Assembly (NCBI GenBank): GCA_013388455.1
Contig: JACAFF010000022.1
Location: 41,866 to 105,865 of the forward strand
Length of the DNA: 64,000 nucleotides
Reading direction: 5' to 3'
From: Nitrospirota bacterium
GTDB taxonomy: Bacteria > Nitrospirota > Thermodesulfovibrionia > Thermodesulfovibrionales > SM23-35
Of the stretch, positions 43 through 62,820 are shown one piece after another; positions within the stretch are counted from its first letter, which is position 1; every line of letters starts with the position of its first letter. Position numbers and translations under genes: made by a program. The notes under the pieces are model-generated. The model made no database searches. It was given only the letters and a program-made list of their open reading frames with translations, and had not been told where the DNA came from.

Positions 43-51
43 AAAAATAAA

Positions 52-142
52 CCCTGGGGGAGGCTCAAAGCCTGAGAGTTTTTCGTCATTGGCGAAAAAG
101 ACCCCATGAACCTGATACGGATAATGCCGGCGTAGGGAATGG
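52..142 (+). promoter_or_regulatory. TPP (THI-box) riboswitch aptamer
   Basis: Contains the hallmark elements CTGGGGGAGGC...CCTGAGAG...ACCCCATGAACCTGATACGGATAATGCCGGCGTAGGGAA, directly upstream of thiE-thiC-thiD. Confidence 0.85.
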
Positions 143-150
143 GAAAAATT

Positions 151-180
151 ACCGTATCCTTCAGGGATACGGTTTTTTGT
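151..180 (+). terminator. riboswitch expression-platform intrinsic terminator
   Basis: ACCGTATCC / GGATACGGT 9-bp stem followed by TTTTTTGTTTT; lies between aptamer and thiE start. Confidence 0.75.
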
Positions 181-4927: not shown

Positions 4928-5737
4928 GTTTAAACCAAGGTCAACTGCAACTGTTCTTATAACAGATCCATCAACAATGTTCAGCTTCGCAAGATATCCT
5001 TCAAGAAGTGCATTATCACAAACAGTGTTTATAAGACGAGGAACCCCATGCGTATATTTGTAAATCTGCTTTATTGCATCATCAGAAAAAACATTATTAT
5101 CACATCCGGCAATCTTTAATCTATGTCTGATGTAATCTTTTGCATCAGCTTCTGAAAACTCTTTCAGTCTTATCTTTACAGCCACCCTCTGTTTTAATGG
5201 CTCGTCGAGAGCAAGGACATCTTCAAGTTCGGATAGACCAAAAAATATAAAATTCAGCATCTTTCCATCAGGTGATTCCATATTTAAAAGACCCCTGAAT
5301 TCTTCCATAATCTCCTTCGAATTCAACATTTGCACCTCATCTATCATTACTATTGATTTCTTACCTTCTTCGTTAATCTCTGTAAGTCTTTTATAAATCT
5401 GGCTGAGCAGTTCTATCTTATCGTTAACAACCTCCTTAACTCCAAGTTGTACTGCAAATTTTCTAAAGAGCCACTCTGAACTTACACTGGAATGCACAAC
5501 TACAAGTAAGGCTGCTTCATATATATTCTCATCCAGTTCCTCAAGTAATCTTCTTGCCAGAGTTGTCTTCCCAGTCCCAATTCCACCAATAACAACAGCA
5601 AGACCTTTTCTTGTATCTATTGCATATTTAAGTTTTATGAGGGCATCTGTATGTTGACGGCTATTAAAGTAAAACCTGCTGTCAACTACATTTGAGAACG
5701 GATGCTCTTTCAGACCATAGTATTCAAGGTAATCCAT
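4913..5737 (-). CDS. ExeA/MshM-type AAA ATPase
   Basis: 274 aa; N-terminal YYGLKEHPF, Walker A GGIGTGKTT, IDEVQ Walker B. Family resembles GspA/ExeA, MshM and the PEP-CTERM-locus ATPase. Start abuts the stop of the upstream TPR gene. Confidence 0.8.
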   Translation of the reverse strand: MDYLEYYGLKEHPFSNVVDSRFYFNSRQHTDALIKLKYAIDTRKGLAVVIGGIGTGKTTLARRLLEELDENIYEAALLVVVHSSVSSEWLFRKFAVQLGVKEVVNDKIELLSQIYKRLTEINEEGKKSIVMIDEVQMLNSKEIMEEFRGLLNMESPDGKMLNFIFFGLSELEDVLALDEPLKQRVAVKIRLKEFSEADAKDYIRHRLKIAGCDNNVFSDDAIKQIYKYTHGVPRLINTVCDNALLEGYLAKLNIVDGSVIRTVAVDLGLNSEKK

Positions 5738-14560: not shown

Positions 14561-15343
14561 ATGAAATTTAGTGAGGAACAGCACCTCCGTTACCTGCGAC
14601 ATATAATGCTCCCCGAAGTCGGGATAGAAGGGCAGATTAAGATTTCTAATGCAAAGGTCTTCGTAGTTGGTGCTGGGGGACTCGGCTCACCAGTTGGTTA
14701 TTACCTCTCAGCAGCAGGGGTTGGAACCATAGCATTCATTGATAATGACAACGTTGATTTAAGCAATCTCCAGCGACAGATAGCTCACAGCACAAAGACA
14801 CTCGGCAAACCAAAAGTTGATTCTGCAAAAAAGACATTCGAATCTCTCAATCCCGATGTCCATATCGTTGCAATCAGGGACAGATTAACAAAACTGAATG
14901 TCCTTGAGCACATAAAAAATTACGATATTGTAGTAGATTGCAGTGATAACTTTTCTACCCGTTTTCTTGTAAACGACGCTTGCGTTATGTCTAAGAAACC
15001 TCTGGTTACAGGAGCTATTTTCAAGTTCGAAGGCCAGTTGACGGTTGTAGTCCCGGGGGATGGTCCTTGCTACCGGTGTCTTTTCGAAGAACCACCTCCG
15101 CCCGGTGTCCTTCCCGCACCCTCAGAAGTCGGGCTTTTTGGAGCAATCCCGGGCGTTATCGGGACATTGCAGGCAGCAGAGGTCCTTAAACTAATCCTGC
15201 AAATTGGCACTTTACTCAAAGGTGAGCTTCTCATATATAATGCACTCAAACCTTCATTCAGGAAAGTAAAAATCCCGAAAAACCCTAATTGCCCTGTCTG
15301 CAGCGATAAACCAACAATAACTAAGTTGATTGAGTACAGCTAA
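14561..15343 (+). CDS. MoeB/ThiF/HesA-family E1-like adenylyltransferase (candidate sulfur-carrier activator)
   Basis: RYLRHIMLPEVG, GAGGLGSP nucleotide loop, NLQRQ, CYRC and CPVC zinc motifs. ATG at 14561 preferred over the ORF-track 14495, which overlaps hom. Confidence 0.85.
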   Translation: MKFSEEQHLRYLRHIMLPEVGIEGQIKISNAKVFVVGAGGLGSPVGYYLSAAGVGTIAFIDNDNVDLSNLQRQIAHSTKTLGKPKVDSAKKTFESLNPDVHIVAIRDRLTKLNVLEHIKNYDIVVDCSDNFSTRFLVNDACVMSKKPLVTGAIFKFEGQLTVVVPGDGPCYRCLFEEPPPPGVLPAPSEVGLFGAIPGVIGTLQAAEVLKLILQIGTLLKGELLIYNALKPSFRKVKIPKNPNCPVCSDKPTITKLIEYS

Positions 15344-15366
15344 CCCGAAAAATGCATATGTTGTGG
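15341..15366 (+). repeat. partial left end of MITE-like element (copy G)
   Basis: TAACCCGAAAAATGCATATGTTG matches the TTAACCCGAATAATGCAGACATTG ends of copies A, B and E; begins at the moeB-like stop codon. Confidence 0.5.
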
Positions 15367-15377
15367 AATGTGGAATG

Positions 15378-15554
15378 GGGTCGGACTTGTTTATTGCAAT
15401 TTGTCTTTTCATTTAGCATATTTAAAACATTTTCCATATCCGCTTTAAAGGTTTCTCCTTCTTTCAAATATCTGGTGATTACCGATGGGTCTTTTTGAAG
15501 ATAGAATGCTATTTCTTTACTCTTATACCCAAATTCCCTATCTGTAATAAATGC
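15378..15554 (-). pseudogene. C-terminal remnant of an HTH (DnaA-C-like) domain gene, possibly a Y1-transposase-associated family
   Basis: Minus-strand reading frame ...REFGYKSKEIAFYLQKDPSVITRYLKEGETFKADMENVLNMLNEKTNCNKQVRP, preceded by an in-frame stop. Architecture parallels the remnant at 21232-27. Confidence 0.4.
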
Positions 15555-15897
15555 CTAACAGTCCTGTATCTTCTGTTGTAATACATTGTGTAACTCTGGT
15601 TTATACCCTGAAGAATTTTTGGGGGCTGAAGTCGAAGCGTAAGCCTCAGAGATAAAATATGCAACTACACCAAAATATAAAAATAAAGCCATGTTTTTAT
15701 ACTAAGGTAGTTTATTTTGTTTTATAAATTGAGTTATTGCCAGATATGCTATTTTCATAAAATTATTGAGTTGACCCGCCTGAGGAGGGTAAATCCGCCT
15801 CAGGCAAATCAGTTAAATAAATTTTTAAGCAATGCCTAAATTATCTGGGTGAACCTTCTCAGCATTAAACAAATATTTATTCTGATATTTCAAATAG

Positions 15898-18063
<2,166 letters not shown>

Positions 18064-18105
18064 CTATTGTTTTAAACCCAAAGGGTTTCTCATTGAAAAT
18101 TACTA

Positions 18106-18543
18106 TTATTTTTTACATTTTTCACACAGGCCATTAAATACAATTTTAGTATCTATAATTGCCAATTTTTCATATAAATCTTCTGGAATTTCAATGTTAT
18201 CTAAACGCTCATCATAAATATCAATAATTCTATTGCATTTTACGCAATGGAAGTGATTGTGTCGTTTTGTAACGCCATCATACCTTCTTATGTCTTGCAC
18301 TCCTTCTACAAGTTTTGCCACTCCTATTTCCACAAATAATTGAAGCGTTCTATTAACAGTGTCAAAAGAAATATTAGGAAATTTTTGTTTTACTCTCTTA
18401 TATATCTTTGTTACAGAAGGATGGTCATTAAATTTTACTAATTCTTTATATACCTCAACCCGTTGAGGTGTTACCTTTAAATTGTTTTTTTGACACGCTT
18501 CATAAAAAGCTGACAAAAAAGAATCTAACATTTCCTTTTTCAT
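18106..18543 (-). CDS. perR: Fur-family peroxide-responsive repressor (PerR-like)
   Basis: Fur fold with HNHFHCVKC...C..C metal sites; sits 51 nt upstream of katG on the same strand; ATG at 18543 preferred over the TTG at 18579. Confidence 0.8.
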   Translation of the reverse strand: MKKEMLDSFLSAFYEACQKNNLKVTPQRVEVYKELVKFNDHPSVTKIYKRVKQKFPNISFDTVNRTLQLFVEIGVAKLVEGVQDIRRYDGVTKRHNHFHCVKCNRIIDIYDERLDNIEIPEDLYEKLAIIDTKIVFNGLCEKCKK

Positions 18544-18550
18544 AATTAAT

Positions 18551-18579
18551 ATTATATAGTAATAATTCCTATTAATCAA
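18551..18579 (-). promoter_or_regulatory. candidate perR-katG promoter (TTGATT-17-TATAAT) overlapping an AT-rich imperfect palindrome
   Basis: Minus strand reads TTGATTaataggaattattactaTATAATattaattATG, leaving only 7 nt between the -10 and the ATG. Confidence 0.35.
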
Positions 18580-18795
18580 GTGCTATCTAAATCTTTTAAA
18601 ATCTACTTACTTAAAACCAATTCGTTATTTTAATAATTCATAGAAAATATATTGAAAAGTATTACGGAAAATCTTTTCAGAAACCGGAAACTTTCAAGAA
18701 ATAAAAGGTAGCAACAAAGAACTCTTTCAAATTCTTATCAATTTAAGCGGTCGGATTTTAATAGCTATAACGAGAAATAGAATATGATTGTAACA

Positions 18796-19197
18796 TCAAA
18801 ATAAGCTGATATTGCTTTCGCCGCCTCCAATTAATGGGAGTACCTTTTCAACGGTAAAATATACTAAAAATTTTGGACCTTTATTCTTGTCCTCTTCAGG
18901 TGTTAAATTGCGTCTGGTCATTTTAGCTATTAAGGCTGAGTCAGTCTCTTCCTTTACCTTTTTCAAAAACAGCCTTACCCCTCTATAACCTGCATTATTT
19001 TCAATAAATAAAAATGCGGCATATGGATTTGATTGCAAGTTATGATGAGTAAGACGTTCTCTCATTATAAAAGCTAATGTTCCGTCTTCAAAAACATGAG
19101 GGACAGAATAGATTGCTATATCTACCTTGCCTTTTGAATCAGCGGTAGATAAAATACCTATGCCATTTGCGCTTCTGAAATATTCTTTGAGTGTCAT
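18796..19197 (-). CDS. pyridoxamine 5'-phosphate oxidase-family FMN-binding protein
   Basis: About 133 aa split-barrel-like sequence (GILSTADSKGKVDIAIY..., FLFIE...GYRGVRL); start at MTLKEYF. Confidence 0.6.
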   Translation of the reverse strand: MTLKEYFRSANGIGILSTADSKGKVDIAIYSVPHVFEDGTLAFIMRERLTHHNLQSNPYAAFLFIENNAGYRGVRLFLKKVKEETDSALIAKMTRRNLTPEEDKNKGPKFLVYFTVEKVLPLIGGGESNISLF

Positions 19198-19204
19198 GTT
19201 TCTC

Positions 19205-19768
19205 CTATTTTTGCTCAGTTTTAATAAGTTTAGAGGTATCATATTGCTTATCCCTCAAACGAGAGAGAATTGCTTTATATACCTCTGGCTCAATCTCCTT
19301 TGTGCGGCTCAAAATCCAAAGGTATTTCCGACTCGGATGTCCTATAACGGCATATTCATAATTTTTACCCAGATCAATTATCCAATAGTCTCCAGCAAAA
19401 GGCCAGAAAAAAGATACCTTCAACTTGGCATTTGTTTCTTTATCGACTATCCATGCTTTACCTTTTGCAGACCTAATTTTGCCGCTGAAAGATTTGTCAT
19501 AACATTCATTTAGAACAGAGATTTTACCATCATCTCTCAGGGTATACGTTGCCTTACTTCCTACACAACCCTCCTGAAAGATGTGGGGATATCTTGCAAT
19601 CTCATACCATGTTCCTGCATAGCGTGTTAAATCCACATAAGGCACAATCTGTAAAGGCAGATAAGTTTTTTCCTTGGTACCCATGCATCCCATTAAATTC
19701 AGAAACATTGAAGTGATGATTAAAATACAGAATGCTATTAACCTTGATGTAAAATTATATCGATTCAT
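19205..19768 (-). CDS. blc: bacterial lipocalin (Blc-like outer-membrane lipoprotein)
   Basis: Lipobox LMGC; lipocalin motifs GTWYEIARYP, YWIIDL...YEYAVIG.P.R.YLWILSR. Confidence 0.88.
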   Translation of the reverse strand: MNRYNFTSRLIAFCILIITSMFLNLMGCMGTKEKTYLPLQIVPYVDLTRYAGTWYEIARYPHIFQEGCVGSKATYTLRDDGKISVLNECYDKSFSGKIRSAKGKAWIVDKETNAKLKVSFFWPFAGDYWIIDLGKNYEYAVIGHPSRKYLWILSRTKEIEPEVYKAILSRLRDKQYDTSKLIKTEQK

Positions 19769-19956
19769 TTCTCGTCTTTGTTACCAATAACAGAAACTTT
19801 TGCATTTACAGGTCAATGAAACCTGCTTAGATACTTTTCTGATTTTCTTTATAATTCTACCTTCAGACTATAAACCGGACTTCTTGAACGGTTGTTTCAT
19901 TTCTTATTAATTATATATAATATATAAAATAATTTCTCAATTGCAACTTGTGATTT

Positions 19957-21204
19957 GTGGCAAAGACAAACAGGAATAAATCACTGGAACATACAGCAAC
20001 GATCATACATGAAAAATCAGTAGCAAGCATTGAATTCTCACTATGCTGGGAAAACTCCGCTATATTCCACACCGACTGCTTTTTTGCAGGGAAAGTGAAT
20101 TTTTACCGTGACATCTTTCCGCAGAAGATTAGCGATTCGCTAATGGGAAAATCAAAAGGAGATACAATAGTAATCCCAAACATTATAAAAGACATTGTAT
20201 CGCCCTACTCACAGAATTATGAGTTCTCTATTGAACAAAGACAATTTGACCATCTTTACACTGCTCCATTAAAGACAGAGCCTCGATTTGGACGTTTTTA
20301 TCCAAAAGGCCTGCTGAAGGCGCTTCCGGGCATCTTTCGCGGGAACGTTGAGCCATTTCGATGTTCGGGGATAACAGATGCTACCATTACCGTGGATTTT
20401 AATCATCCGCTTTCACTTATGAATGGCAATCTTACTATGGCTATAAAAGATGTAAGGAGGAATAGCGGGATACTTGGTGGGTCATGTACCGACTGGATGG
20501 AAATAATAACCTCCGGCCCTGGGATGCAGACACGCTGCCGAAGTATTCCCACAGATTTCTTTTCGGATGAACCTTTCAGGAGAATAAATGAACATATTGA
20601 TGCAGACTTCTATAAAAAACCTCGTCTTGTTACCCATATTGATGATAGAGCCATATCAGTAATCAGTGATTTATATGGTCAGACACTGGAAAATGGGATG
20701 AAGGTTCTGGATCTTATGAGCAGCTGGAGGTCACATATACCCCAGAACATAAAACTTGAATCGCTTGTCGGGCTTGGGCTCAATCGGGAGGAGATGTTGC
20801 AGAATCCCCAACTTACCGATCAAGTTATACATGATCTGAATAGAGATCCATTGCTCCCCTTCACCGACAACACATTCGATGCAGTTATTTGTACCGTTTC
20901 TGTGGAATACCTGATATACCCCTTCGAAGTTTTCGTGGAAATAGCAAGGGTTCTAAAAACAGGCGGGTATTGTATGGTTACCTTTTCAAATCGGTGGTTT
21001 CCGCCCAAGGTTATAAAGATATGGACTGAACTCCACGATTTTGAACGGATGGGTCTCATTCTTGAATATTTTTTACAAAAAGGCTTATATAAAAACCTTA
21101 AAACCTTTTCGATGAGAGGACTTCCAAGAAATGAGGATGATAGATATTATCCAGCTATGCCTTATTCAGATCCGGTATATGCGGTGTGGGGACAAAAAGG
21201 GTAA
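19957..21204 (+). CDS. SAM-dependent methyltransferase (type 11 domain) with ~200-aa N-terminal domain of unknown function
   Basis: C-terminal VLDLMSSW...FDAVICTVSVEYL...VLKTGGYCMVTFSN is a class I MTase core; GTG start uncertain. Confidence 0.65.
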   Translation: MAKTNRNKSLEHTATIIHEKSVASIEFSLCWENSAIFHTDCFFAGKVNFYRDIFPQKISDSLMGKSKGDTIVIPNIIKDIVSPYSQNYEFSIEQRQFDHLYTAPLKTEPRFGRFYPKGLLKALPGIFRGNVEPFRCSGITDATITVDFNHPLSLMNGNLTMAIKDVRRNSGILGGSCTDWMEIITSGPGMQTRCRSIPTDFFSDEPFRRINEHIDADFYKKPRLVTHIDDRAISVISDLYGQTLENGMKVLDLMSSWRSHIPQNIKLESLVGLGLNREEMLQNPQLTDQVIHDLNRDPLLPFTDNTFDAVICTVSVEYLIYPFEVFVEIARVLKTGGYCMVTFSNRWFPPKVIKIWTELHDFERMGLILEYFLQKGLYKNLKTFSMRGLPRNEDDRYYPAMPYSDPVYAVWGQKG

Positions 21205-21231
21205 GAAAGCTTATAGGGTTTCTTGGGGTTG

Positions 21232-21427
21232 CACCTTGACGAAAGACAAAGTGACCTTACGTAATTCCTTTTACTCAAAGATACAGATTGGAGAATATTT
21301 TAGTAATTTAAGTTATTCTGCAGTAGTAAAGATATATGAGCGGTTTAAAAGAAGATTGAAAGAAAACACAAGATTAAGAAGAGAGGTAGAGAAAATAGAG
21401 AGACAATTGTCCTATGTCAAAGTGTGA
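21232..21427 (+). pseudogene. C-terminal remnant of an HTH (DnaA-C-like) domain gene, same family as 15378-15554
   Basis: ...KIQIGEYFSNLSYSAVVKIYERFKRRLKENTRLRREVEKIERQLSYVKV*. The N-terminal part of the ORF-track ORF is read-through of the MTase 3' end. Terminal AAGTGTGACCCC resembles the inverted AAGTCCGACCCC at 15378-89. Confidence 0.45.
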
Positions 21428-21842
21428 CCCCTCTCATTTTTCCGCTAAATTAATTATCCCTGGCCATTTTTTAACAGAAATTATCTTACACTGCCAGGAA
21501 CAATCTCCGTATGAGGCATGTGGTATTCTTGCAGGGAAAAACAATGTCGTAGAAAAAGTCTTCAAGATGACTAATGTCGAAAAATCTTCTGTAAGTTATC
21601 TGATGGATTCAAGGGAACAATTTATTGCCATGAAAGAAATGAGCGGGCTTGGACTCGCTATGGTCGCAATATATCACTCTCATCCTGTTTCCTCTGCATA
21701 TCCTTCGCCCAAAGACATAAGCCTCGCATTTTACCCTGACACATTTCATGTCATCGTAAGTCTTGCTTCCGGTGCTGCCGTAATCAAAGCCTTTGAGATA
21801 AAAGATGGCGTCAGAGAAATAGAAATCATAGAGACTCATTAA
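21414..21842 (+). CDS. JAMM/MPN+ metalloprotease (Mec+/HcyD-like)
   Basis: EACG...(E), HSHPVSSAYPSPKD = JAMM motif H-x-H-x7-S-x2-D; 142 aa, the size of CysO/HcyS-processing enzymes. Confidence 0.85.
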   Translation: MSKCDPSHFSAKLIIPGHFLTEIILHCQEQSPYEACGILAGKNNVVEKVFKMTNVEKSSVSYLMDSREQFIAMKEMSGLGLAMVAIYHSHPVSSAYPSPKDISLAFYPDTFHVIVSLASGAAVIKAFEIKDGVREIEIIETH

Positions 21843-22020
21843 CCCGAATAATGCAGACATTGCTCGAAAATTTCTTTAACTCGATGAATTTATTAAATTA
21901 TTCAGATTCGTTCGATGAATAAAAATATTCGTAAAACCATTAGTTAAAGGTACACTAAGGTATCAAAAAATAAATTTTCTCGCAACATCTGCATTATTCA
22001 ATTGCATTATTTGGGTTAAT
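21839..22020 (+). mobile_element. MITE-like inverted-repeat element, copy A (longest)
   Basis: TTAACCCGAATAATGCAGACATTGCTCGAAAATTTCTTTAA ... AAATTTTCTCGCAACATCTGCATTATTCAATTGCATTATTTGGGTTAA; ~30-bp imperfect TIRs and no coding capacity. Confidence 0.7.
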
Positions 22021-22145
22021 TAGAACCATCCCTTTCAATTATTCTCTATTTTGAAGTAAAATTTAAAATCATTGCAGTCTATTTTAGTCGTTATTCCGGG
22101 CGAAACGAGGAATTTCTCAGTAATAGAGACTCAGGAGATATTTAT

Positions 22146-25091: not shown

Positions 25092-26296
25092 AATACATAA
25101 TTATTATTGGTGATGGGATGGCTGACAGACCGCTTAAAGAACTTAAGGGTAAAACCCCTCTGCAAAAAGCAAGGACTCCTAATATGGACAAACTTGCAAG
25201 GGAAGGTTTCATTGGCAGGATAAAAACTATACCTCATGGATTTCATCCGGGCTCTGATGTTGCTAATCTTAATATCCTCGGATATAATCCTGAAGAATTC
25301 TATTCAGGCAGAGCACCTTTAGAAGCACTTAGTATGGGTGTTAAACTTAAAGAAAATGATGTAGCATACAGATGTAATTTAGTTACACTTAAGTACAATA
25401 AAGATAAAACAAAAGCTGTAATGGAAGATTATAGCAGCGGCCATATTCCCACAGCAGAAGCAAAAGAACTTATCCAAGAAATCAATGAAAAATTAGGCTC
25501 TGAAAAGATCAGCTTTTATGCCGGTGTCAGCTACCGACATATTATGGTATGGTCTTCAGGCGCAGTGAATATTGAATGTACCCCTCCACATGACATTACT
25601 GGTAAAAATATTGCAGATTATCTTCCAGTTGGAGACCACGAAGAGTTCTTAAGAGAAATAATGTTAAAGGCGAGTGCCATACTTGGAGGACATCCTATTA
25701 ACAGAAACCGTATAAGAAAAGGTGAAAAGCCTGCCAATGGTATATGGCTATGGGGACAGGGCAAAAGAAAAATCCTTCCAACTTTCATTGAAAAATATGG
25801 ATTGAATGGCTCTCTCGTATCTGCTGTCGACCTTATCAAAGGTATTGGTATAAGTGCAGGATTTGAGATTCTCAATGTACCAGAAATTACCGGATATCTG
25901 GATACAAATTATTCAGGTAAGGCAGAGTCATCAATCAAAGCACTTCAAAAGGTTGACATTGCTTACATTCATGTAGAAGCACCTGATGAGGCAGGACATT
26001 CTGGCAATATTAAGGATAAGATTAAAGCAATAGAGGATTTTGACAAATTCGTTGTAGGTAATGTATTGAGGGGATTAAAATCTTTTACTGAATACAAAAT
26101 ATTGCTTTTGCCTGATCACGCTACCCCAATAGCAGTTAAAACCCATACTGACGAACCAGTGCCCTTTGTTATTTTTGATAGTCGGGTTAAAAGAACGAAT
26201 AAGAATGTGTCTTTCGATGAATCTATATCTCAAAGAGACGGGATTCTCGTTTTTGAGGAAGGTTACAGGTTAATGGATTATTTTATAAAAGGTTAA
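25088..26296 (+). CDS. ApgM-type cofactor-independent phosphoglycerate-mutase-family protein, probable non-orthologous homoserine kinase
   Basis: 402 aa alkaline-phosphatase-superfamily protein (IIIGDGMADRP, HVEAPDEAGH, LLPDHATP); overlaps the thrC stop by 4 nt (ATGA). Confidence 0.75.
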   Translation: MKYIIIIGDGMADRPLKELKGKTPLQKARTPNMDKLAREGFIGRIKTIPHGFHPGSDVANLNILGYNPEEFYSGRAPLEALSMGVKLKENDVAYRCNLVTLKYNKDKTKAVMEDYSSGHIPTAEAKELIQEINEKLGSEKISFYAGVSYRHIMVWSSGAVNIECTPPHDITGKNIADYLPVGDHEEFLREIMLKASAILGGHPINRNRIRKGEKPANGIWLWGQGKRKILPTFIEKYGLNGSLVSAVDLIKGIGISAGFEILNVPEITGYLDTNYSGKAESSIKALQKVDIAYIHVEAPDEAGHSGNIKDKIKAIEDFDKFVVGNVLRGLKSFTEYKILLLPDHATPIAVKTHTDEPVPFVIFDSRVKRTNKNVSFDESISQRDGILVFEEGYRLMDYFIKG

Positions 26297-26407
26297 CCCG
26301 AATAATGCAGACATTGCTCGAAAATTTCTTTAAAAGGTACACTAAGGTATCGAAAAATAAATTTTCTCTCAACATCTGCATTATTCAATTGCATTTTCTG
26401 GATTAAT
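26293..26407 (+). mobile_element. MITE-like element, copy B
   Basis: TTAACCCGAATAATGCAGACATTGCTCGAAAATTTCTTTAA...CTCAACATCTGCATTATTCAATTGCATTTTCTGGATTAA; near-identical to copy A ends, and the stop codon of the upstream gene lies in its first 4 nt. Confidence 0.7.
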
Positions 26408-32661: not shown

Positions 32662-33878
32662 TACTCTTCTTTTATCTTTATCCTTAAACCGTCCCTCATT
32701 TTATTCAGTGGTCTCAGCACAACCCTGTCACCTGCCTTAACTCCATTCAAAATTTCTGTCATTTCATCATACTTCGATCCAATATTTATAGAGGTCTTCT
32801 TAACTCTATCTTCAATGACAAGATACACATAACTCTTACCATTTATTGTTATGACAGCATCTTTATTAATAGCTGTAAAAGGTTTCTGTTCTTCTAACTT
32901 GACTTCTCTGGATAGAAAAGCCACCTTAGCGCTCATTTCTGGCAAAATACGTTTATCTCTGTCAATAAAACTAACTTTCACAAGCACAGTTGCTTTTGTG
33001 CGGTCAGCAGTGGGCACTATCATATGCACTTTTCCCCTGAAACGTGAATCAGGCAGAGCATCAAGTTGAATCTCACAGGGCTGTCCAATTTTTACGTTCT
33101 GAATATTTGACTCTGATACGTCAACTTCTACCTGAAGTGAATTCATGTCAGCTATTGTCACCACAGCAGCCTTTGCATTCGCAGCCGCACTGAAAGGGCT
33201 GACAATATCTCCAATATCTGCATTTTTTGTTAGAACAACGGCATCGAAAGGTGCTCTAATAAAGGTATAATCAAGTGATACCCTGGCTACCTCAAGAGCT
33301 GCTGTAGCTGCCTTTACTGAAGCTTCTGAAGCTTCAACCAATGCAAGCGCCTTCTTGTAACGGGCTTCTGCTGCATCATACTCTGACCTTGAAACAAAAT
33401 CCTGCTCCAAAAGATTTTTGATTCTATTGAAATATAGACTGGCATCAGTAAGCTCAGCTTTTGCCTGTTCAAGATTATGATGTGCTACTTTCATATTAGC
33501 TTCTGCCTGTCGCTTAGAAGCAAACACATCTTCGTTTTCGAGTTGAGCAATAATTTCACCTGTTCTGACTCTACTTCCTTCTTCTACAGAGATTGACACC
33601 AGACGACCTGTCACTTTTGATGCAACTGCTGCTTTACGTTGAGCAACAACATATCCACTGGCATTCAAAACTGTAAATGTTTGTGAAGGATAAAGTTGTG
33701 TTACATTTGTAACTTCAACATCAACAGAAGGTGTCAAGAAACCTGTTAGGTAAAGGGTTATAATAACAGCAATTAGAATGAACCCTGCCATCCAATATAT
33801 TAACTTCTTATGTCTTTTCGGACGGTAGGTTACAGCAGATTTATCAATCTTTAACTGAGACAGATCTTCATTTGCCAT
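32661..33878 (-). CDS. efflux periplasmic adaptor (HlyD/MacA membrane-fusion protein)
   Basis: 405 aa; N-terminal TM anchor, coiled-coil hairpin, barrel-sandwich/beta-barrel regions. Confidence 0.85.
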   Translation of the reverse strand: MANEDLSQLKIDKSAVTYRPKRHKKLIYWMAGFILIAVIITLYLTGFLTPSVDVEVTNVTQLYPSQTFTVLNASGYVVAQRKAAVASKVTGRLVSISVEEGSRVRTGEIIAQLENEDVFASKRQAEANMKVAHHNLEQAKAELTDASLYFNRIKNLLEQDFVSRSEYDAAEARYKKALALVEASEASVKAATAALEVARVSLDYTFIRAPFDAVVLTKNADIGDIVSPFSAAANAKAAVVTIADMNSLQVEVDVSESNIQNVKIGQPCEIQLDALPDSRFRGKVHMIVPTADRTKATVLVKVSFIDRDKRILPEMSAKVAFLSREVKLEEQKPFTAINKDAVITINGKSYVYLVIEDRVKKTSINIGSKYDEMTEILNGVKAGDRVVLRPLNKMRDGLRIKIKEE

Positions 33879-34041
33879 TTATGTCTCCTTTAAGGAAATT
33901 TATATAATTACTTTAATTTTTATTATAATATTTTACAATTAATGCTATTTTTTTATTTTATGATAATTGATAATTATGGAATGGCCTGTGCTGAGGATAT
34001 CTAATCCTCAGAGGTCATGATGATAAACTAAATGAAATTCT

Positions 34042-34120
34042 AATAATGCAGATGTGTGAAAAAATTTATTTTTCGATACCTTAGTTTACCTATAAATAAT
34101 GGTTTTATGAATACTTTTAC
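34042..34120 (-). mobile_element. MITE-like element, copy C (partial, inverted orientation)
   Basis: AATAATGCAGATGTGTGAAAAAATTTATTTTTCGATACCTTAGT...GGTTTTATGAATA is the reverse complement of the right half of copies A and B; the left half is replaced. Confidence 0.55.
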
Positions 34121-34189
34121 CCATATAACATATACACCTCATTGCAACCTCGGACTTGATTCAGTAGAAGCAACCCAATCTTTAGCATT

Positions 34190-34230
34190 GAGATTGCCAC
34201 GCCCTGAAAGCGTTCGGGGCTCGCAACGAC
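34190..34230. repeat. short dispersed repeat, GTCRTTGYGAG family (copy 3, inverted)
   Basis: Reverse complement GTCGTTGCGAGCCCCGAACGCTTTCAGGGCGTGGCAATCTC parallels GTCATTGTGAGCACCTGAAAGGTGCGTGGCA at 27605. Confidence 0.45.
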
Positions 34231-34308
34231 AACTTAAATAAGAACTTTCTCATCTAATCACTAAATTTGAAAATAACTATTAAGGATTTTGAATAGATTC
34301 TTTTAAGA

Positions 34309-56367: not shown

Positions 56368-56410
56368 TTAACCCGAATAATGCAATTGAATAATGCATTT
56401 TTCGGATTAA
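56368..56410. repeat. 43-bp palindromic unit equal to the joined outer ends of the MITE-like element (copy F, 'empty' form)
   Basis: TTAACCCGAATAATGCAATTGAATAATGCATTTTTCGGATTAA. Its reverse complement equals copy A with the TGCAGACATTG...CAACATC interior removed. Confidence 0.6.
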
Positions 56411-58859: not shown

Positions 58860-59349
58860 ATGATAACGGAAATTAAAAACATCCTCAATAGAATTGACTC
58901 AATCAAATTTGACCTTGACGGTTACCGTCCTTTTTCAGAACATGTTGTAAAACAACTGAAAGACTATTACCGCATTGGGCTGACATACACATCCAATGCA
59001 ATCGAGGGCAATACGCTTACAGAGTCGGAAACAAAGGTTATGCATAACAATAGGTGGGAAATCCCTGAGAGAACATTATGAGGCAATAGGACACGCAAAG
59101 GCTTATGACCATATTTACACTCTGATGGGCAGGCCGATATCAGAGGAAGATATTTTGTTTCTCCATAAGCTCTTTTTTCAGCAGATAGATTTTGAGAATG
59201 CAGGCAGATACAGACAGAAAAATGTCATCACCACAGGAACCGATTATCTGCCTCCTGATTATCAGGAAGTTCCTGAACTGATGAAAAAGTATATTGCGAA
59301 TTTAAATACGTATGTTGAAAATAAACACATCCTTGCTAAAAAAGAATAA
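58860..59349 (+). pseudogene. Fic/DOC-family protein, frameshifted and 3'-truncated before the HxFx(D/E)GNGR motif
   Basis: TYTSNAIEGNTLTESETKV then frameshift to ITIGGKSLREHYEAIGHAKAY...; the ORF ends in a TAA that is part of MITE copy D, and no Fic active-site motif is present. Confidence 0.7.
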
Positions 59350-59424
59350 TGCAGACATTGCTCAATAATTTCTTTAACTCGATAGGTATCGAAAAATAAA
59401 TTTTCTCACAACATCTGCATTATT
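59345..59424 (+). mobile_element. MITE-like element, copy D (inner core only, 80 bp)
   Basis: AATAATGCAGACATTGCTCAATAATTTCTTTAACTCGATAGGTATCGAAAAATAAATTTTCTCACAACATCTGCATTATT. Confidence 0.7.
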
Positions 59425-59513
59425 CATCCGTTTAAATACTATGTCCTGTCTATATCTTAAAAATTCATGAATGATATTGGTTAAATAAGACTTTATGGAC
59501 AAGGTAATCTTTT

Positions 59514-62592: not shown

Positions 62593-62704
62593 ATGAGCAC
62601 ATCTCCAAAATAACTAAAACTTTTATACCATAAGAATCTACAAATTATCAATTTTTATGCCATATTAGCACAAGCTATAACTCTAATTAAAAAAAGTTTA
62701 TCTA

Positions 62705-62820
62705 AAGCCGAAAAATGCAGACATTGCTCAAAAATTTCTTTAATTCGATAGGCCCCTTCGTCCCACTTGGCAAGGGAGGAATTAACATCTGCATTATTTT
62801 AAATGCATTTTTAGGTTAAC
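62705..62820 (+). mobile_element. MITE-like element, copy E (variant interior)
   Basis: AAGCCGAAAAATGCAGACATTGCTCAAAAATTTCTTTAA...TTAACATCTGCATTATTTTAAATGCATTTTTAGGTTAA. Confidence 0.65.

Follow-up and report, generated by a model that had tools for sequence, protein, structure and literature searches.

Transposons of the eukaryotic piggyBac superfamily duplicate a TTAA at their target, and they have CCC termini and asymmetric ends that combine 13-bp terminal with 19-bp internal repeats. IS5 elements end with GG...CC, and the bacterial Correia and ERIC repeats exert orientation-dependent effects on mRNA. A target-site duplication (TSD) is the mark of staggered cutting by DDE-type transposases, whereas HUH/Y1 enzymes, as found in IS200/IS605 elements and, by extension, in the RAYTs that go with REPINs, make none. 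The IS1380 transposases have been used as prokaryotic outgroup of piggyBac (PMC10813416), IS1247 of the IS1380 family generates a 5-bp duplication (PMC3281130), and the IS5 group duplicates a 4-bp target with the motif YTAR, including TTAA and CTAA (PMC5009759). Here, we describe a family of inverted repeats in a 64-kb stretch of DNA from a Nitrospirota bacterium (assembly GCA_013388455.1, contig JACAFF010000022.1), which as a whole is termed the window. These repeats are genuine copies of a short mobile DNA element without coding capacity, which inserts at TTAA between genes of uncultured Nitrospirota. With a probability of roughly 0.85, the family consists of MITEs (miniature transposable elements that have inverted repeats) with a 4-bp, mostly TTAA, target duplication, which are moved in trans by a DDE-type transposase.

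The 16-mer AATAATGCAGAYRTTG occurs 12 times in the window if up to two mismatches are permitted, where 0.40 matches would be expected, and none of 100 shuffled sequences reached 12. Seven family loci are present, which corresponds to about one copy per 9 kb, and a blastn-short self-comparison of the window, a repeat finder and nhmmer searches with profiles of both arms delivered the same set and no locus beyond these seven. The 16-mer matches at 33212 and 37018 are regarded as chance matches, being located inside open reading frames (ORFs), without any extension and without support by the profile searches. A sequence-only reading of the window, made by a model without database searches, had already listed seven copies, A to G, and by inspection of the sequence, 16-mer statistics, blastn-short and nhmmer all of them are indeed present at the positions then given or a few bases off.

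The same reading had made its interpretation depend on the occurrence of copies elsewhere, and the family is clearly not confined to the window, since copies are found in other metagenome-assembled genomes (MAGs) and in metagenome contigs. Among the scanned species-representative genomes, a 25-mer of the left arm matched seven contigs in four Nitrospirota/Thermodesulfovibrionales MAGs, and a 21-mer matched at least 120 metagenome contigs from at least 30 assemblies. Over 707 kb of loci collected in this way (numbered with the prefix L in the following), profile searches revealed 106 paired copies as well as 54 single arms, and the flanks of different copies are unrelated to one another. There was no match in a scan of viral contigs, nor in a blastn search of plasmids. 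One window protein has 100% identity to a protein annotated in a Nitrospirae/Nitrospirota MAG (166-kb contig), and the nearest relatives all belong to Nitrospirota or Thermodesulfovibrionales MAGs. Exact look-ups of the nth and JAB proteins of the window gave no match. The family is abundant and polymorphic in Thermodesulfovibrionia-like Nitrospirota. In the literature on the sequence, on MITEs in Thermodesulfovibrio and on bacterial TTAA MITEs, no description of the family was found, and it appears to be an undescribed MITE family so far, though of an ordinary kind.

Copy A (21839..22019, plus strand) is the full-length, canonical form in the window. Its two TTAA duplicates cover positions 21839-21842 and 22016-22019, and the element proper (21843-22015) reads CCCGAATAATGCA...TGCATTATTTGGG. 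In general, the canonical element comprises ~173 nt plus the 4-bp target duplication, which amounts to ~181 nt with both copies of the duplication. It starts with CCCRAAWAATGCA and finishes with the inverse, TGCATTWTTYGGG, and inside of these 13-nt terminal repeats there is a subterminal inverted repeat of ~30-45 nt (GACATTGCTCAAAAATTTATTTAACTCGAT / ATCGAAAAATAAATTTTTTCACAACATC). The consensus of 55 canonical copies has the order TTAA, CCCRAAWAATGCA, GACATTGCTCAAAAATTTATTTAACTCGAT, a variable interior of ~70 nt, ATCGAAAAATAAATTTTTTCACAACATC, TGCATTATK, TAAATGCATTTTT or CAATTGCATTATT, YGGG, TTAA. The ends are asymmetric, because a 13-nt duplication that contains a second copy of the motif AAWAATGCA is present on the right end only, so that the right end has two copies of the motif and the left end has one. 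According to the 55-copy consensus, the arms are more conserved than the interior, which forms at least two subfamilies, and the right arm, which the search pattern did not include, is conserved to at least 90%. The pattern itself selected for left-arm positions 12-32, so that their conservation is an artefact of ascertainment and was not used as evidence. In the outside loci, the distance between the inner repeats shows a sharp mode at 152 nt (99 pairs), which is exactly the value of copy A. Copy A therefore has the canonical full length and does not carry ~65 extra bp, as the sequence-only reading had assumed, and the outer TTAA that this reading had assigned to the ends of the long copies is the TSD and lies outside the inverted repeat. 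Its statement that the copies have no coding capacity holds, as the canonical copy has no ORF.

Mobility is evident from sites that are filled in one lineage and empty in another. The comparison with sister lineages, which had been suggested earlier, could be made via a shared gene with L144 (90% protein and 83-85% nucleotide identity) and L145 (88% protein and 80-85% nucleotide identity), and it revealed a presence/absence polymorphism, with the orthologous sites of A and B being empty. At the site of copy B, the window has the sequence TATAAAAGG-TTAA-element-TTAA-TGAAAATAT, where L144 has only TATTAAAGG-TGAA-TGAAAATTT (AAAGG-TGAA-TGAAAAT), and the alignment breaks exactly at window positions 26297-26401. 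Copy B is missing between the same two genes also in L068 and L107; these genes are 14 nt apart in L144 and overlap in L068 and L107. At the site of copy A, GACTCA-TTAA-element-TTAA-TTAGAACCATC in the window corresponds to GTCTCA-TTAA-CCCATC in L145, with 180 extra bases in the window, and copy A is likewise missing in L107 and L068, two more distant loci that lack A as well as B. The reverse case exists, too, as a copy of L107 is absent at window position ~11095, and in an independent pair with 88% identity the site is filled in L110 and empty in L022. The empty sites hold a single TTAA, TGAA or TAAA where the filled sites have the element between two TTAA. L145 (9412-9592) carries an unrelated 181-nt insert with its own hairpins (e.g. 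CCCTGAACTTGATTCAGGG) at the copy B site, and the spacer behind the phosphoglycerate-mutase-like gene therefore has been struck independently.

As TTAA is palindromic, filled/empty comparisons of this kind do not by themselves tell whether 4 bp were duplicated, only TA was duplicated, or the bases are part of a terminal repeat. Among 87 distinct copies, TTAA is found on both sides in 31, and on each individual side in 46. Six of the 87 have another identical tetranucleotide as direct repeat on both sides (CTAA, three times TTTA, TTAC, TAAA), whereas with permuted right flanks such cases averaged 0.63 and never exceeded 5 in 10,000 trials (p<1e-4). None of the 87 copies has the flanks in the inverted arrangement that would go with these bases being part of the inverted repeat. 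Four further direct repeats (GATAA, ATTCA, ATAA, CTAA) were recognized by eye in cases where indels had misled the parser. Because of these direct-repeat variants that differ from TTAA, the element proper is CCC...GGG, with a duplication of 4 bp and a strong preference for TTAA. The family thus combines a small size and the lack of coding capacity with terminal inverted repeats (TIRs), a TSD, and dispersed, polymorphic copies in unrelated contexts, all of which are characteristic for MITEs. The sequence-only reading had left the choice between a transposable element and a REP/BIME-like structured repeat; the former is well supported by the TIRs, the 4-bp TSD, more than 100 dispersed copies that occupy varied contexts in several species, and precise empty sites, and the latter is not supported.

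Both strands of copy A are able to form a long hairpin (RNA z-scores -6.3 and -7.1; DNA -4.7), in agreement with what had been predicted. The arm helices are well retained, with 96.5% of the cells being paired across the 55 canonical copies. Pairs that changed on both sides number 6, as compared to 1.6 in shuffles, but these are few events, and some are inherited by subfamilies, e.g. GAAAATGCA...TGCATTTTC. The two arms evolve in concert, which fits to a hairpin constraint or to matched transposase sites and is no evidence for an RNA gene. As to the position relative to genes, 105 of the 106 copies lie outside long ORFs. Among 71 adjacent gene ends, 14 have their stop codon within the duplication or the element, and 41 are not more than 20 nt away from the element. 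The description of all window copies as intergenic is essentially right, except that upstream genes have their stop codons within the TTAA duplicate (A, B, G) or within the element itself (D). In case of copy A, it is the stop codon of the JAB gene (21414-21842) that lies within the left TTAA.

Orientation is strongly biased. Between co-directional genes, 30 copies are co-oriented with the genes and 8 are anti-oriented (~79% co-oriented; p=5e-4), and beside the start of a downstream gene the ratio is 37 to 8 (p=1.5e-5), with many downstream start codons 7-45 nt past the element. Transcripts of the canonical strand have C-A mismatches at positions where the reverse strand forms G-U pairs, and they are therefore less stable than reverse-strand transcripts in 54 of 55 copies, by 8.3 kcal/mol on average. 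The preferred orientation (~79%) is therefore the one with the weaker mRNA hairpin. We infer as simplest reading that selection removes insertions that would place the stronger hairpin in mRNA, and a replication-linked insertion bias could be an alternative cause.

What alternatives exist for an element that is moved in trans by a DDE-type transposase? With respect to the target duplication, a TA-duplicating MITE of the IS630/Tc1-mariner type, as in case of Correia and ERIC, could in principle have ends of the type ACCC...GGGT and insert into the TA at the center of TTAA. Because of the TTAA palindrome, the canonical copies and the filled/empty comparisons fit equally well to such a 2-bp duplication, but the variant copies repeat the whole tetranucleotide (TTAC/TTAC, CTAA/CTAA, TTTA/TTTA, TAAA/TAAA), which comes for free with a 4-bp duplication and would cost one to two extra mutations or indels in each case with TA. 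This makes TA duplication extremely improbable. With respect to the hairpin, the repeats could be a functional structured RNA or a cis-regulatory module that is conserved for its fold, such as a terminator, an attenuator, an mRNA-stability element or a small RNA. The high stability of the hairpin (z-scores of -6.3 and -7.1), the conservation of the arms above the interior, some covariation, and the non-random orientation relative to transcription, with copies just past stops and just before starts, would all fit to such a role. However, orthologous sites may have or lack the element, which brings a target duplication with it, the genes in front of the copies are unrelated, copies exist in either orientation and likewise in spacers between divergent or convergent genes, and their interior is freely replaced or deleted. 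Rfam 15 contains no family that matches the element at the gathering threshold, nor one that matches copy A at E<=1, and there is no promoter or intrinsic-terminator consensus in copy A. Moreover, the favored orientation gives the weaker fold. A conserved RNA function is therefore highly improbable, while secondary effects on operon expression are possible and compatible with a MITE.

A further alternative would be a REPIN/REP-like or IS200/IS605-derived palindromic element that is moved as single-stranded hairpin DNA by a Y1 (HUH) enzyme, of which a decayed remnant would be retained as pseudogene in one of the window copies. This copy, G-H (15340..15853, minus strand, flanks CTAA and TGAA), had been taken for a mere end fragment, G, but it is a composite of ~514 nt, with the right arm at 15340-15366 and the left arm at 15811-15853, the latter having a profile match at 15852-15811 (E=4e-6). 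Between the arms and in the same orientation as the element lies a Y1 (HUH) transposase remnant with a frameshift, an internal deletion and a DnaA_C-like helix-turn-helix (HTH) tail (15366..15661, minus strand), whose relatives belong to PF01797/PF08299. A ~110-nt remnant leader is also found directly beside a left arm in L106, which means that the composite or association exists in two genomes. The compensatory arm changes preserve pairing, and the strong orientation bias recalls a strand-specific transposition of single strands. All these points would be in favor of a Y1 enzyme, but HUH transposases do not make 4-bp direct duplications, let alone with non-palindromic variants, the inverted repeats of the family reach the very ends, and the two sides of a copy carry the same variant tetranucleotide. 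The arms, which are long TIRs, do not include a REP-type short palindrome with a conserved head, and there is no Y1-like sequence near any other of the ~105 copies or the 54 single arms. Related remnants in L008-L010 occur without family arms and with an own terminal repeat, GGGGTCAGACTTGTTT, that is present also at 15378-15393 in the window copy; this fits to a nested foreign element, and the MITE is indeed frequently hit by other small elements. A Y1 enzyme as mobilizer is thus very unlikely, and a RAYT/Y1 partner was rejected as main explanation, since the remnant is decayed, has its own ends and is not tied to the other copies.

The Y1 remnant of G-H ends in its terminal motif GGGGTCGGACTTGTTT (15378-15393), and this motif flanks the related remnant in L010 as inverted repeat. 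All ten database relatives of the remnant are fragments of 62-163 residues that carry PF01797 (Y1_Tnp) or PF08299 (DnaA_C-like HTH); the remnant peptides alone gave no Pfam or NCBIfam match. Relatives with Y1 and DnaA_C-like HTH share a C-terminal ...DPSVITRYLKEG...CNKQV end, which is followed by the terminal motif GGGGTC(A/G)GACTTGTTT. These fragments look like a second, non-autonomous element family that is derived from an HUH transposon, and we judge the remnant in G-H to be a nested element and not the mobilizer.

If the family is a MITE with a 4-bp target duplication, a DDE-type cut-and-paste transposase would bind the terminal and subterminal repeats in trans and would make 4-nt staggered cuts. 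The enzyme could most likely be of the piggyBac/IS1380 lineage, judging from the TTAA duplication, the CCC...GGG termini and the asymmetric ends, with an IS5-type enzyme (4-bp YTAR duplication) as next candidate. Such a piggyBac/IS1380-like partner is a tentative proposal, and an IS5-like or IS701-like partner would be somewhat less likely again. It is likewise possible, though rather doubtful, that a TTAA-specific prokaryotic enzyme of the piggyBac/IS1380 lineage has left the MITE family as its footprint, and that this transposase is active now, or was so recently, in Thermodesulfovibrionia-like Nitrospirota. The long inverted repeats give rise to the hairpin potential, to which the frequency of internal deletions (B, D, F) and the selection on orientation are probably both due.

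Several points weigh against a DDE-mobilized MITE or against its assignment to a certain transposase lineage. The search for an autonomous element with the same TIRs, which the sequence-only reading had suggested, found none with these ends in the ~780 kb of collected sequence that were reached, and there is no transposase gene in the window. A clustering of the ORFs around all copies gave no recurrent transposase ORF family, and with the ISEcp1 transposase as phmmer seed there was no match among the 3,810 ORFs of the collected loci. Between the arms of long pairs lie housekeeping genes or foreign elements that are nested, and unpaired arms adjoin housekeeping genes. As TTAA fits also the YTAR target of IS5, the mobilizer family is not fixed by the target. 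Orientation bias and compensatory arm changes are not predicted by a simple DDE-dependent MITE and need selection as an added argument, and the conservation of the left arm, being set by the search pattern, is no independent evidence.

Some candidates for an autonomous element or partner had to be rejected. A 2.5-kb arm pair in L105 encloses a gene for a 4-alpha-glucanotransferase-like protein and no transposase, and a 1.4-kb pair in L123 as well as a 3-kb pair in the window are chance pairings. In L034, a 573-nt variant of the MITE, whose geometry seemed suitable for a partner, contains the 5' part of a small zinc-ribbon ORF. This ORF opens an IS21-family element that has three genes (small ORF, IstA, IstB) and is truncated here. 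The ends of this IS21-family element are TGTGAGCGG... in L131-L136, TGTAGGCAATAACC... in L137-L139 and TGTAAGTAATAATCG... in L140, and a matching IS21-type end, TGTAAGTAGTAATCG (TGTAAGTA...), lies inside the MITE copy of L034. Because the insertion sequence has its own end within the MITE copy, the fragment is a nested insertion and an IS21-family partner can be dismissed. The IS21-family element itself (L131-L143, nested at L034 4111-4697) has a zinc-ribbon ORF of ~113 residues without Pfam match that precedes IstA and IstB; at least six identical copies with 5-bp duplications are found in one MAG, and relatives with lower GC content on short contigs.

The other six copies in the window are deleted, truncated or cargo-carrying forms of A, and the derivative copies span 43-117 nt. 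Copy B (26293..26406, plus strand, TTAA at 26293-26296 and 26403-26406) is an internal-deletion derivative that lacks most of the interior and has retained both arms intact. It constitutes the whole spacer between the phosphoglycerate-mutase-like gene and nth, and its left TTAA supplies the stop codon. Copies D and F are internal-deletion derivatives as well. Copy D (59344..59426, plus strand) is a minimal form of two ~40-nt arms and a 4-nt loop with degenerate outer ends, and the stop codon of a Fic-like ORF (58996-59349) lies inside its left arm. Copy F (56368..56410, minus strand) consists of TTAA-flanked termini only, with a 97% match over 31 nt to the right end of A; it corresponds to the reverse complement of A minus everything between two TGCA tetranucleotides at the base of the long hairpin, so that the whole hairpin is gone. 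Copy E (62703..62819, plus strand, flanks TAAA and TTAA) has retained both arms, and a GC-rich hairpin module (62751-62779) takes the place of its interior, as had been noticed before, and E is the only window copy that is antisense to both neighboring genes. Copy C (34021..34129, minus strand), finally, is truncated to the right arm and part of the interior, has no left arm, and matches A over 75 nt with 84% identity. Where the window has 341 nt with the truncated copy C (33959-34299), the corresponding region of L144 (9132-10245; 1.1 kb) contains two genes for a TPR protein and a YkuD-family protein, and these two extra genes suggest a MITE-associated deletion at the copy C site.

Other small elements have been found inside the MITE in several genomes. 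In MITE interiors, modules with a GC-rich hairpin of the type CCCC(C)TT...AAGGGG(G) are repeatedly found as inserts or replacements, as in copy E and in four of the outside loci (L011, L032, L041, L048). The G-H cargo includes a GC-rich palindrome, CCGCCTGAGG...CCGCCTCAGG (15773..15805), of a second tiny repeat family. Such tiny palindromes (TCCGCCTGAGGCGGA-like) are nested in the MITE copies of L063, L082, L084 and L102 and as a double copy inside G-H, and in other genomes their insertion point is the MITE's internal TTAA/TAA, where TAA appears to have been duplicated. L032, L054, L075 and L077 contain a third nested element, whose ends are GGCAGGGCATAGTATTT. The MITE is evidently prone to deletions and often serves as target of other small elements. 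Many single arms are found at contig ends, and many metagenome contigs, among them at least 16 of the loci, end inside a copy. The family probably is a common assembly breakpoint, by which the MAGs of these organisms become fragmented.

The window is ordinary chromosome, with thiamine genes, a ThiF-JAB-PALP-ThiS sulfur-carrier cluster, pyruvate:ferredoxin oxidoreductase, rubrerythrins, radical-SAM enzymes, ABC/HlyD export, a Lon-like protease and ATP synthase subunits. The thiamine-related genes are preceded by a TPP riboswitch (Rfam RF00059, 69.4 bits; window 46-155, plus strand), an arrangement that is syntenic with L005. The sulfur-carrier cluster is split by a ~6-kb block (15344-21413) that begins at the composite MITE G-H and contains genes for a catalase-peroxidase, a Fur-family regulator, a PNPOx-like protein, a lipocalin-like protein and a methyltransferase; in L145 and L107, no more than ~40 nt separate ThiF from JAB. 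The leader of the PALP (CysM-like) gene contains a small hairpin (ATTCCGGGCGAAACGAGGAAT; 22093-22113), whose position is kept in L107 (~5610-5635) and L145 (~5040-5065) and which may be a regulatory structure.

The family adds an abundant MITE to a poorly studied, uncultured phylum. Since copies are polymorphic between close lineages, they can be used as strain markers, and copies between tightly coupled genes in preferred orientation, such as copy B, offer a natural system for the tolerance of long hairpins in polycistronic mRNA. If the mobilizer indeed belonged to the piggyBac/IS1380 lineage, there would be a bacterial system that shares target choice, CCC/GGG ends and asymmetric ends with eukaryotic piggyBac. 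These hallmarks would then predate the split of IS1380 and piggyBac, and the bacterial enzyme might excise its element without a scar, which would be of evolutionary and biotechnological interest. Of wider interest are thus the piggyBac-like end signature in a bacterium, still without its transposase, the orientation bias, and the role of the element as a nest for other small repeats.

How does the family compare with the known systems? REP, BIME and REPIN sequences with their RAYTs are likewise hairpin-forming intergenic repeats with compensatory arm changes, and one window copy surrounds a Y1 remnant, but the family differs by its target duplication and by long TIRs instead of short REP palindromes. 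IS200/IS605-derived elements have no TIRs, make no duplication and insert 3' of a one-sided, fixed tetranucleotide, none of which applies to the family. In appearance, the Correia (CREE/NEMIS) elements of Neisseria and the ERIC/IRU elements of enterobacteria come close, being non-coding inverted repeats of 100-180 nt that are intergenic, co-transcribed near gene ends, form long RNA hairpins, and have variants with internal deletions. They duplicate TA instead of 4 bp, have no sequence similarity to the repeats described here and occur in another host phylum, and the present family has no promoter or terminator consensus. The IS5 group likewise duplicates 4 bp, with the motif YTAR, to which TTAA and CTAA fit, and no IS5-type partner was found in the collected sequence. 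Because of the CCC...GGG ends and the variants TTTA, TTAC and TAAA that do not conform to YTAR, IS5 fits less well; moreover, CTAG was never seen among the 87 copies, and TTAA dominates. The IS1380 family has in common ends that start with CC, as in ISEcp1, whose end in L148 begins with CCTAG, and duplications of 4-5 bp, whereas known members have not been reported to be TTAA-specific. The assignment to piggyBac/IS1380 is one by end features alone, with piggyBac being eukaryotic, and the inverted repeats of the present family are much longer (~45 nt). The piggyBac superfamily and its MITEs share insertion at TTAA with its duplication, CCC...GGG termini, and 13-nt terminal plus subterminal repeats that are spaced differently at the two ends, an asymmetry in which the resemblance is one of form only.

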